From NCBI GenBank assembly GCA_965204345.1, contig OZ241981.1, forward strand, positions 1,024,001 to 1,088,000: a stretch of DNA of 64,000 bases, read 5' to 3'. The DNA is from Nitrosopumilus sp. GTDB lineage: Archaea > Thermoproteota > Nitrososphaeria > Nitrososphaerales > Nitrosopumilaceae. Below, one piece after another: positions 20,487-40,347 of this stretch; position 1 is the stretch's first letter, and each line of letters opens with the position of its first letter. The position numbers and the translations under genes were made by a program. Below the pieces are notes generated by a model. It made no database searches. It had not been told where the DNA came from and worked only from the letters and a program-made list of their open reading frames with translations.

Positions 20487-21254
20487 TTATGCTATTAAAC
20501 CAATATAGGGTCTTACAAGATCCCAAAATTCGAATGGTCTTATCAAAGTTATGCCCGTAAAATTCTTGACTTGGTTCTTGTTCTTCATTAGTTTTTCATC
20601 CATAGTCATAAAATAATTACATTGAAACCTTATTGCATCAAATATCAATTTCTTATCATCATTACTTAGAAATCCAATTTTTGAATTAAATTGTTCTAGT
20701 ATTTGCTGGTTTTTATCATGGAATGTTGCGAGAGTACCATCATATTCGTTTATCATATCACAATAATCTTTCAAGTCATAGACATATTGCTCATAACGAA
20801 CGTTATCTTTTTCTGTTACCTCTTTGATTACATTTGGAGAAATTACCAGTCGAAAATTGCTTCGCGAAAATCCGAATAAATTCCTTAGCGATTCAACATT
20901 TTGTGTTCCATCCTTATTTCTAGATAGTGTATCACATAGAAGAACATCCTGATTATCAAATATCTCTTCACCATATCGTACCAAGCAATGAACTATGTTT
21001 GTATCTAGAAAAACCCTCTGGGAAATTCTTTCATAGTCTGATAATGATGAATTTGACAATATTCTACTTTGGAATAATGCTATATAAAAAAAATTATTTA
21101 AATGCAATTTTGTTTGTTTTGAAGATATTTCAGATGATTTTATGAATTTTGTAAAAGGTAACATCAAAGATCTTGATGTAGAATTCACAGAAATATTGTA
21201 TATGGAAAAGAAGAAAAGAAATTTCAAATTCAAAGTAAAGTACAACCAATCCAC
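20487..21254 (-). CDS. PIN-domain protein (true start probably downstream of the ORF start)
   Basis: VFLDTNIV...DKKLIFDA...FMTMDEKL...IRP PIN acidic motifs. Confidence 0.7.
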   Translation of the reverse strand: MDWLYFTLNLKFLFFFSIYNISVNSTSRSLMLPFTKFIKSSEISSKQTKLHLNNFFYIALFQSRILSNSSLSDYERISQRVFLDTNIVHCLVRYGEEIFDNQDVLLCDTLSRNKDGTQNVESLRNLFGFSRSNFRLVISPNVIKEVTEKDNVRYEQYVYDLKDYCDMINEYDGTLATFHDKNQQILEQFNSKIGFLSNDDKKLIFDAIRFQCNYFMTMDEKLMKNKNQVKNFTGITLIRPFEFWDLVRPYIGLIA

Positions 21255-21281
21255 TGAATGTGCTATTCTCTTGTACGAAAA

Positions 21282-21716
21282 TTATGTCCGCCTAAGCTCA
21301 GGCTTCAGGTAAGGGATTATTACCGCATATACCGATCATGAATAATGAAGAGGACTAGACTAAAGGAGGACCAGATCAGATACATCATACGGCAACGTCA
21401 GAAGGGCACAGGTGCAGCAATTCTGGCCTGGACCATGCAGATCAGCGCAAGACACGTCAGATACATATGGGCAGCTTACCACAAGACCAGAACAATACGC
21501 CCCCACAGAAGATCAGGAAGATCCAGAAATACAATATTGTGGTTGAATATCTTTACTATTGCATCCTCCCACGCCCACAGAAGATCAGGAAGATCCAGAA
21601 ATACAATATTGCCTGAGGATGTATGTCGTGTTCTTAAGACACCTGATGGCTCTGGGCCAAAAAGGTTCCTGATGCGATCAGGAAAAGCAATCAAAAATGG
21701 ATGGAGGCGGACATAA
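21282..21716 (+). mobile_element. internally deleted IS481-like remnant
   Basis: HTH N-terminus KEDQIRYIIRQRQKG...ISARHVRYIW; 12-bp inverted repeats TTATGTCCGCCT (21282-21293) / AGGCGGACATAA (21705-21716). Confidence 0.65.
21502..21611. repeat. 38-bp exact duplication flanking a 34-bp insert
   Basis: 21502-21539 = 21574-21611; insert 21540-21573. Confidence 0.95.
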
Positions 21717-38450: not shown

Positions 38451-39194
38451 TTAGATTTCAACATTCTCTACTTTGTACGACCCATAATCTAATCGATAAT
38501 ACTTGTCTTTGATTGACAACCATCTAGTTTGAGAGGAATTAGAAGTGGTTTGCTTTATCCATACAGCATATGCAAAAAAATCTGCAAGTTGCAGTATTGG
38601 TGATGTTTTGGGATCTCCATTTTCTACATGACCTCGTATATTATCAAGCTTCTTGTAATGCCTAAACTGCAAAATTTCTTTTAATCCTTTGATGGTTCGT
38701 TCTGTCTTTTTTCTAGCCTTTTTGTTAAATTTCTCATAAATTGCCCTGCCTTCAGCATCATGCTCTTCAAGAAAATCTTGGAATCTCTCCAGCAGTATCA
38801 AGATAGCATATGCTTTGGGGTCTGCTGACATACCATATTTTGTACAGTGACTGTCTAGATTTATTGTAACTGACAAAAGATGACAGTTTGATTTTTTGAT
38901 AAGTTCAAACATATCATTGGCTAGCTGAAATCTTTGAGTGTCTAATAATTTATCATATGGAGGGCGTTTGTTTCTTAATGGATGATAATGAATCTTGAAA
39001 TTTTCAGGTAGTATTGTCTTTGAAAAATATCTGTTACTTATGGAGTTAATTTCATTATTGAGTTTTATTTTTAATATATCATCTACTATGATCCCAGCTA
39101 GAGTGAAAAATTTAGAACTTCCATCTATTACTTTATTATGTTTGTCTAAATAATCCCCTGCATCTCCACTTTCATCAATATACAAGTAATACAC
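38451..39194 (-). CDS. DUF3800 domain protein
   Basis: YIDESG N-terminal motif and LQLADFFAY C-terminal motif. Confidence 0.88.
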   Translation of the reverse strand: MYYLYIDESGDAGDYLDKHNKVIDGSSKFFTLAGIIVDDILKIKLNNEINSISNRYFSKTILPENFKIHYHPLRNKRPPYDKLLDTQRFQLANDMFELIKKSNCHLLSVTINLDSHCTKYGMSADPKAYAILILLERFQDFLEEHDAEGRAIYEKFNKKARKKTERTIKGLKEILQFRHYKKLDNIRGHVENGDPKTSPILQLADFFAYAVWIKQTTSNSSQTRWLSIKDKYYRLDYGSYKVENVEI

Positions 39195-39702
39195 AGTTTC
39201 AAAATATAGTATATGTGATAAAAAAATTGAATGTGTTTACTGTTAACTTGAAGATTTATTATTTTGACAACAAGATTTAATTTTTAAAATTTTGATTTTA
39301 ACATTAACTATTGACTGTGGCGATCAGTCTACTATCAGACACTAGAGAATATTTCATATAACTCCCACATCACTTTTCTCACAATGGTCAGCCATGATTT
39401 TGTAATTCTAGATTATTCTCATATGAGATAATATAGAAATCATACATGTGTAAAGTGTGAGAAATCAGTTATAATTGGTGGCTCTAGTCACTCTCAAAGA
39501 ACAAAACGTTCGAAAAAATCACACCATAAAACATGTTGGGAAGCAATGTACCATTAGTATGAAAAGCCTCTACTGCAAAGCGGTTTTACATGTGTTTTAT
39601 TGCCTGTATTTTGTATTTGAAAACTCAAAAAATGAAATTCTGAAATCTCTTATCATACATCAATTCGAAATTTCTAAATTATGCTAAATATAATGATACA
39701 AA

Positions 39703-40049: not shown

Positions 40050-40156
40050 GTAATGTAATATCAATTTCTTTTTTCTTGTTGTACCCAAACAGTATCATCT
40101 CGTACCGGTGCCGCCACGTAGTAATGTAATATCAATTTCTTTTTTCTTGTTGTACC
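40050..40156. repeat. 36-bp exact duplication flanking a 35-bp GC-richer insert
   Basis: 40050-40085 = 40121-40156; insert 40086-40120. Confidence 0.95.
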
Positions 40157-40347
40157 AGCAATAATCTCTGCCTTGCTTGGTTACCCCTTGGCTTTGTTCT
40201 AAGAGCCATTCCACAACAGGGACAGTTGGTGCCATCCCAATGTATGAAAATTTCACAAGAGGTGCAACGCTTTTGGCCAGATCTGTACCTTGTCTCTCCA
40301 ACCTTTTTTAGTGCTCTATATCTTGTGCAGATTCCACGACAGGGCAT
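40132..40347 (-). CDS. small Cys-rich zinc-binding protein
   Basis: CRGIC, CTSC, CPCC; paralogue pseudogene at 16637-16852. Confidence 0.8.
   Translation of the reverse strand: MPCRGICTRYRALKKVGETRYRSGQKRCTSCEIFIHWDGTNCPCCGMALRTKPRGNQARQRLLLVQQEKRN

Follow-up and report, generated by a model that had tools for sequence, protein, structure and literature searches.

As an ordinary piece of coding DNA in an archaeal chromosome, the region studied here raises a simple question, namely how a short segment of an insertion sequence (IS) came to stand twice, in exact copies, around an insert that related copies of the same element do not have. The region lies in a stretch of 64,000 nucleotides (nt) from Nitrosopumilus sp., called the window below, which covers positions 1,024,001 to 1,088,000 of contig OZ241981.1 and corresponds to G000:C1:1024001-1088000, where G000 is our label for this genome (2.12 Mb in nine contigs, 38.7% G+C). 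A preliminary description of the window had interpreted the repeat-spacer-repeat unit at 21502-21611 as an ectopic spacer integration by the CRISPR adaptation machinery, and our results support this interpretation by the geometry of the unit, by the machinery of the genome and by the empty sites. In fact we regard it as very probable that the unit is the fixed product of one off-target (ectopic) Cas1-Cas2 spacer integration of type I-B.

The unit at 21502-21611 and its empty sites

The structure of the unit is exactly as first described, a 38-bp duplication around a 34-bp insert with a period of 72. Letter for letter, the 38-mer at 21502-21539 recurs at 21574-21611 (100% identity), 72 nt further on from start to start, and the spacer-like insert between them (TGGTTG...CCCACG, 34 nt) occupies 21540-21573, the whole unit covering 110 bases. 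It stands in frame within the open reading frame (ORF) at 21345-21716 on the plus strand, to which it contributes 24 extra codons, and the ORF thus encodes HRRSGRSRNTIL twice. According to its translation, BLAST and the domains of its paralogues, this ORF is the N-terminal helix-turn-helix (HTH) part of a transposase in a decayed IS copy. In the intact IS paralogue, a domain search finds an HTH protein followed by an rve/rve_3 integrase, while the window copy, according to BLAST, has been reduced to ~385 nt from the 5' part and ~100 nt at the 3' end. The host is therefore an IS remnant as the preliminary description had it, for which the label IS481-like is reasonable, with membership in IS481 putative.

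Since the nearest genomes are ~81% identical to this one and the regions around several units are not conserved in them, paralogues and Cas1 orthologues were used to find the empty sites. For the unit at 21502-21611, at least 12 paralogous IS copies of 80-89% identity align on both sides of it (BLAST against the genome), and both 38-mers map to a single place in these paralogues, so that copy 1 is native IS coding sequence and copy 2 is recognised by its identity and by the same alignment. In two of the paralogues, direct alignment gives a clean gap of 72 nt, that is, one copy of the 38-mer plus the insert. The expectation that related IS copies would lack the 72 bp is thus borne out, as they hold the 38-mer once and no insert. 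Exact duplications of 36-38 nt cannot have arisen by chance. The target here was an already dead IS copy, and therefore the unit is without function at this place; an Rfam scan of the window together with a tandem-repeat finder gave nothing relevant.

One part of the preliminary description is not shown, namely that the insert is foreign, as no source for 21540-21573 was found in any search made. There is no exact match to it in viral_contigs or metagenome_contigs, no match at up to three mismatches among 150 other genomes of the genus, and against phages there are chance-level matches only (Bacillus phages, E = 0.1); in its own genome the sole match is an 18-nt partial one to IS copies.

Two further observations can be made at this unit. 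Across the boundary of copy 1 and the insert (21518-21553) there is an imperfect palindrome around CAATATTG, with 22-nt arms that are 73% complementary, which is probably due to chance. Moreover, a different copy of the same IS family carries an independent unit of its own at G000:C1:1406775-1406884, present in three copies, and its 38-nt target lies only ~11 nt from that at 21502-21539 in IS coordinates, a proximity that may reflect a local hot spot.

Units of similar size throughout the genome

The genome was scanned for isolated two-copy direct repeats at every period of 25-200 nt (match +1, mismatch -3, minimum score 22), a pair being taken as isolated when no other repeat lay within 250 nt. 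The sizes turned out to be narrow rather than broad, as the interpretation by spacer integration had implied: 34 of the 66 pairs fall at periods of 69-76 nt, 15 of them at exactly 72 nt, and so many pairs in 8 of the 176 periods scanned correspond to a binomial p of 4e-28. The remaining periods hold 0-2 pairs each, except for a protein-repeat family at 147 and 150 nt. When the scan was loosened to at least 27 of 34 identical bases, 41 of 65 pairs fell in the 69-76-nt band, which adds ~7 degenerate units that are presumably older.

Altogether 32 independent units were collected, after three that lie near other repeats had been added by hand, and five later copies in repeated elements and one redundant contig copy had been dropped. 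Their periods are 66 (1 unit), 69 (2), 70 (6), 71 (5), 72 (12), 74 (2), 75 (3) and 76 nt (1), and where the duplication reaches 31 nt or more (25 units, with periods of 66-76 nt and a mode of 72), the duplications are mostly 35-38 nt and the inserts mostly 33-37 nt long, or 33-39 and 33-38 nt when the ranges are drawn more widely. The 'repeat' of each unit is its own local sequence, be it coding DNA, the 3' end of a tRNA-Ser gene, IS copies or cas1, and the inserts all differ and have no terminal repeats. Among these units, none has gained a second spacer on the same repeat as a neo-array would, and where units adjoin each other at the tRNA-Ser gene, each has a duplication of its own. Several of the units have since been multiplied along with repeated or IS elements; the results are three identical copies at a distance of 3.6 kb and two inverted pairs.

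The origin of the insert can be seen for 6 of the 32 units (C1:330574, 486267, 500922, 1385280, 1886549 and 1947301), whose inserts match distant chromosomal sites at 91-100% identity; four of the six matches span the full insert, and the matches start and stop at or within a few bases of the insert ends. Two of the matches, at 100% identity, run into the apparent repeat by 4+1 nt in a unit with a 40-nt duplication and a 32-nt insert (40/32) and by 4+5 nt in a 42/30 unit, for which the true spacers are ~37 and ~39 nt and the true duplications ~35 and ~33 nt. The 'repeats' of these two units are thus oversized because they contain spacer ends, and this accounts for apparent duplications being often longer than 36-37 nt. 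The sources are ordinary genes, among them one that, judged from its translation alone, reads like tryptophan synthase alpha, and others for large membrane or housekeeping proteins. Between spacer and source there are differences at 7 of 214 positions, against 1 of 215 between the two repeat copies (p = 0.03 for a small sample of six units), and this hints that the donor DNA may have come from close kin and not from the cell's own chromosome.

The units also bear the mark of selection. In ORFs of at least 290 aa, a threshold picked after seeing the data, all 10 units have a length divisible by 3, compared with 8 of 22 elsewhere (Fisher p = 7e-4), and 7 of the 10 leave the frame open. Four of these seven lie in a subtilase, a 2559-aa HYR/Ig surface protein, a D12 DNA methyltransferase and a PLD-SNF2 helicase. 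The units are therewith real and exposed to selection.

The window itself holds a second unit, and the matching partner claimed for the first one at 40050-40156 was recovered in full. Its 36-nt duplication (40050-40085, repeated at 40121-40156) encloses a 35-nt insert at 40086-40120, which has no match in its own genome and no exact match in metagenome_contigs or viral_contigs. The second copy holds the end of a small ORF at 40132-40347 on the minus strand, and what the unit duplicates is the last codons of this ORF and its stop; the junction on the minus strand reads tgct|GGTAC. In three public sequencing runs of two studies, one of them with 99.6% identity to the window, contigs stop at 40079 inside copy 1 and start again at 40127 inside copy 2, as would be expected of a true repeat that exceeds the assembler's word. 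Among the contigs of four runs there is no joint skipping 71 or 72 nt, as an empty allele of the same strain would give, where contigs are blind to rare variants and their cover at 21000-21700 is fragmentary.

Some observations lie beside these units. Contigs of all four runs include a form that has the same 15 letters in place of the 778 nt at 38792-39569, an insertion/deletion polymorphism of the population that overlaps a 247-aa ORF. Beside tRNA-Ser(CGA), three units stand within 700 nt (G000:C1:485793-486486), two of them only 3 nt apart and one duplicating the 3' end of the tRNA gene. As homology to relatives begins exactly at this tRNA gene, the three units sit in an island, which is probably an integrated element. 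Moreover, parts of C1 recur in the small contigs C6, C8 and C9, perhaps through redundancy of the assembly or as variants between strains: the unit at C1:905180 is found in reverse complement at C8:746-846, the sequence of C1 at ~246-252 kb comes again in C6, and C9 is 95% identical to C1 at ~498 kb.

The type I-B locus and the target cue

The machinery that the preliminary description presumed in the lineage is present, as cas1, cas2 and cas4 occur in the genome and Cas1 in 52 of the 121 genomes of the genus. The single Cas1-family gene of this genome lies at C1:1887727-1888668 on the minus strand and is followed by cas2, cas4 and an array of six repeats (C1:1886280-1886669). The array is decayed with degenerate repeats, has periods of 72, 68, 70, 72 and 72 nt, and its repeat ends in ATTGAAAC. 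This canonical repeat was not found among 60 relatives, and because of that the repeat length was inferred from orthologous loci. Seven relatives were chosen whose Cas1 scores like that of this genome; all seven have arrays of 48-127 repeats beside the orthologous cas1, with repeats of 36-37 nt ending in the same ATTGAAAC, spacers of 34-38 nt (mode 35 in six arrays and 36 in one) and periods of 70-76 nt. The sizes of the units therefore agree with the CRISPR arrays, a comparison that the preliminary description had proposed, both with those of the relatives and with the 68-72-nt periods of the genome's own array, and the unit geometry is that of the type I-B arrays of the lineage. In particular, the 38-nt duplication at 21502-21611 is of repeat length, and its 34-nt insert falls within the range of canonical spacers.

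The rest of the locus is reduced. One relative, G094, has a complete type I-B locus with a cas8b-like gene, cas7, cas5, cas3, cas6b, cas1, cas4 and array (cas2 being outside the scan), and its proteins were used as tblastn queries. In this genome they gave no match for cas8b, cas7 and cas5, a weak generic helicase match only for cas3, and for cas6b a match to residues 92-214 only, which are the C-terminal half; cas1 and cas4 were matched at 58% and 49% identity. Pfam DevR, Cas5, RAMP and Cas6 were negative in this genome, with Cas_Cas7 (PF05107) itself not searched. The complete type I-B set (cas8b, cas7, cas5, cas3 and cas6b together with cas1, cas2 and cas4) was thus not found here. Between the start of the cas6b fragment and that of a 563-aa tyrosine-integrase ORF lie 45 nt (G000:C1:1882556-1884660), and the block of cas1, cas2, cas4 and array is inverted relative to cas6b when compared with G094.

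The gene of the integrase is itself hit. A 38/34 unit at C1:1888134-1888243 breaks cas1 with two stop codons, and its removal in silico restores a frame of 337 aa. In the alignment, the 24 extra codons are absent from all seven orthologues, while outside these codons the protein is intact, with 47-61% identity to the orthologues. With cas1 broken, there can therefore be no integration now, unless another integrase exists.

A cue for the choice of target can be read at the junctions. In six of the seven relatives the leader ends in ..CT (..gct, ..act or similar) beside the first repeat (GTC.., GTT..), and in this genome it ends in ..CT too; the own leader-repeat junction (G000:C1:1886280-1886752) reads ..ggct|CTGAATAG, and those of relatives ..gct|GTC... 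Among the 64 junctions of the 32 units, CT stands at offsets -2, -1 and 0 in 12, 10 and 12 cases, where ~3.6 are expected per offset. Of the 32 units, 23 have CT at these offsets of at least one junction, where 9.5-9.9 would be expected (binomial p = 1e-6); this number was not attained by any of 2000 random-site sets, and of the 16 dinucleotides CT alone stands out clearly. The canonical junction is often reproduced at the units, which then have ct|GT.. or ct|CTG... Moreover in an independent set, five of five unique-sequence units from relatives carry CT at a junction. Similarity to the whole repeat was also considered as a targeting principle and rejected, being barely above random, and only the junction bases matter.

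The leader side of the own array shows peculiarities. The first two bases of the 36-nt repeat vary among the repeats of this genome, pointing to a leader-side cut that is imprecise. The newest unit of the array, the leader-proximal one, stands ~7 nt out of register: here 40 nt, comprising the tail of the preceding spacer and 27 nt of repeat, are duplicated around a 32-nt insert.

The same method was applied to 0.4-Mb samples of other genomes. This genome has 9, 4, 4, 9 and 6 units per 0.4 Mb (32 in 2.0 Mb), while G094 and G088, both with an intact type I-B system, have 3 (one with a canonical-type repeat) and 1 unit in 0.4 Mb, and G002 and G018, both without a Cas1 match, have 1 (weak, 30/42) and 0. 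The density here is above that of the relatives with type I-B, as 32 of 36 units fall in 2.0 of 2.8 Mb (p = 0.01, from small samples), and it is unusual. Two further units adjoin the arrays of G094 and G014 (241 kb of other loci). In the first 400 kb of G002 and of G018, both filed in the same genus, the G+C content is 53-54%, compared with 38.7% here. In G094, a solitary repeat-spacer-repeat at C1:43914-44022 has a canonical-type repeat, GTCAAATTGAC...ATTGAAAC, which differs from the repeat of the array of that genome and lies far from it; this looks like a true orphan mini-array.

Mechanism, alternatives and known systems

What the data show are the unit geometry, the empty sites, inserts derived from the chromosome, a motif at the junctions, the condition of the cas genes and like units in relatives. 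We infer both that Cas1-Cas2 made the units, in whose place no other process is seen to fit, and the order of events given below. Off-target integration as studied by Nivala and colleagues in 2018 reportedly leaves a spacer-sized insert and a repeat-length duplication of chromosomal DNA, at sites that partly mimic the leader-repeat junction. In the present genome, Cas1-Cas2, probably working with Cas4 as the trimmer of prespacers, would carry a prespacer of ~34-35 bp, whose two 3'-OH ends would attack opposite strands of ordinary chromosomal DNA ~36-38 bp apart, a spacing that is normally set by the CRISPR repeat and would here be set by the ruler of the integrase. One end would attack at a leader-like CT junction and the other ~36 nt away, and gap repair would then duplicate the stretch between the cuts, leaving target copy, spacer and target copy. 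As for the order of events, loss of the effector may have been followed by decay of the proper junction, then by a burst of ectopic integration, and at last by the hit in cas1.

Several points weigh against this explanation. As cas1 is broken, present activity is not directly observable. For the unit at 21502-21611, neither the source of the insert nor a protospacer adjacent motif (PAM) was found in its own genome, the 150 genomes of the genus, phages, viral_contigs and metagenome_contigs, and the flanks of the six traced protospacers show no common PAM in either orientation. The unit is also among the 9 of 32 without the CT motif, its junctions reading acgcc|CCCAC and, on the minus strand, ctcagg|CAATA. 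Its 38-nt duplication exceeds the canonical repeat by 1-2 nt, an excess for which fortuitous identity between spacer ends and flanks is a compatible explanation, demonstrated only for two other units. The CT motif was spotted by eye before it was tested, and the likeness of whole targets to the canonical repeat is barely above that of random sites (on average 13.2 vs 12.5 matches; p = 0.03). Finally, the control scans span only 0.4 Mb from each of four genomes, and the weak 30/42 unit is carried by a genome without Cas1.

That last unit, which has a period of 72 nt, speaks for an accident of replication or repair independent of Cas proteins, such as a staggered break with captured filler or a duplication with templated insertion, and events of this kind do create duplications with filler. 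Such an origin is nevertheless highly improbable, as it gives no reason for a stagger of 35-38 nt and a filler of 33-37 nt to recur 32 times with almost nothing at other periods, and it would neither favour a CT junction identical to the CRISPR leader end nor track the presence of cas1. Still less probable is the work of another integrase or transposase, be it a casposase, an IS transposase or the tyrosine integrase by the cas locus. It is true that the genome is rich in IS copies, that the tyrosine integrase gene abuts the truncated cas6b, and that casposases are Cas1 homologues reported in this archaeal group. However, casposons and IS elements make much shorter target duplications (~14-15 bp or less) and insert whole elements, whereas the inserts here all differ and lack terminal repeats; there is only one Cas1-family gene in the genome, and tyrosine integrases do not produce target duplications of this type.

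With their repeat-spacer-repeat geometry and CRISPR-like sizes, the units might also be taken as genuine functional orphan mini-arrays that yield guide RNAs, all the more as the solitary unit of G094 has a canonical-type repeat. We hold this to be extremely improbable. A bona fide array shares its repeat, whereas every unit here has a 'repeat' of local sequence, which homologous sequences hold once and which is no more canonical-like than random DNA save for 2-5 nt at one end; moreover cas6b is truncated, cas8b, cas7 and cas5 were not found in this genome, and cas3 has but the generic-helicase match. An artefact of assembly or sequencing could be suspected from the small redundant contigs, for example C8, which repeats a segment of C1 including one unit. 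The chance of it is practically negligible, as contigs from other studies and samples break exactly inside both copies of the second unit and none joins across the empty site, the unit lengths in long ORFs show frame selection, units were copied along with IS elements, and inserts trace to specific distant genes.

Taking the off-target integration by Cas1-Cas2 together with the state of the locus, a wider reading can be offered, which we hold only tentatively and with somewhat more doubt than trust. The I-B adaptation module of the genus would be a chronic genome-wide insertional mutagen that needs little beyond a CT junction; in this lineage, after loss of the interference genes and decay of junction and array, the integrase would have lost its anchor and written at least 32-40 units of ~72 bp, with largely own or close-kin DNA, some of them being kept as in-frame insertions of 22-25 residues (subtilase, giant surface protein, DNA methyltransferase, helicase), and it would have been stopped only by the spacer in cas1. 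If this is true, Cas1-Cas2 would contribute measurably to gene decay and to variation in protein length in natural populations of archaea, and CRISPR adaptation modules would have in self-inactivation one way of dying out.

Off-target integration has been shown in induced E. coli and in test tubes, and a citing paper speaks of its footprint in nature as circumstantial evidence from two species. From ~32 natural events with clean boundaries, the ruler of the integrase (35-38 bp) becomes readable from evolution, along with a minimal target cue, the leader-end CT, and the sources of the spacers, which are own or near-own chromosomal genes. The record also shows a selective filter, by which only in-frame units survive in long genes, and in this genome a CRISPR integrase is seen to have destroyed the gene that encodes it. 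Taken together with the sparser units of this kind in relatives whose systems are intact, these observations suggest that CRISPR adaptation has a cost, which could be measured across the genus. Full-text literature searches on integration of the kind described by Nivala, and on the genus together with CRISPR, gave no report of such units, and a search on ectopic integration gave mostly unrelated papers. In the available passages of a survey of mobile elements in this archaeal phylum (PMC6563490), I-B systems are described on integrated elements and such units are not mentioned.

What is found here is a natural example of a known process, made notable by the number of units, a readable target cue, self-derived spacers and a self-inflicted break of cas1. 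It resembles canonical I-B adaptation in the genus in having a Cas1 of the same clade (47-61% identity), a period of 70-76 nt and a leader end in ..CT, and differs in that integration in the relatives is overwhelmingly at the leader-proximal repeat, with arrays of 48-127 repeats, compared with six degenerate repeats in this genome. According to papers that cite it, the study of Nivala, Shipman & Church 2018 (Nat Microbiol 3:310) observed integration away from the array in E. coli, with 'circumstantial evidence' from two further species. The 'neo-CRISPR' units, as reported, share with ours a spacer-sized insert flanked by a repeat-length duplication of ordinary DNA. The differences are that theirs were reportedly induced in the type I-E system of E. 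coli, whereas here we see a natural and fixed record of an archaeal type I-B system, with ~32 independent units in one 2.1-Mb genome, at least six self-derived spacers, several in-frame protein insertions, one unit inside cas1 and no multi-spacer neo-array. Furthermore, Cas1-Cas2 of Pyrococcus furiosus can use non-CRISPR DNA with some features of repeats as an integration target in vitro (PMC6698737). That work is biochemical and uses plasmids and a 30-nt repeat, while our evidence is genomic with a spacing of 35-38 nt, and compared with it the feature common to the targets here is the leader-end CT together with the first 1-3 bases of the repeat.

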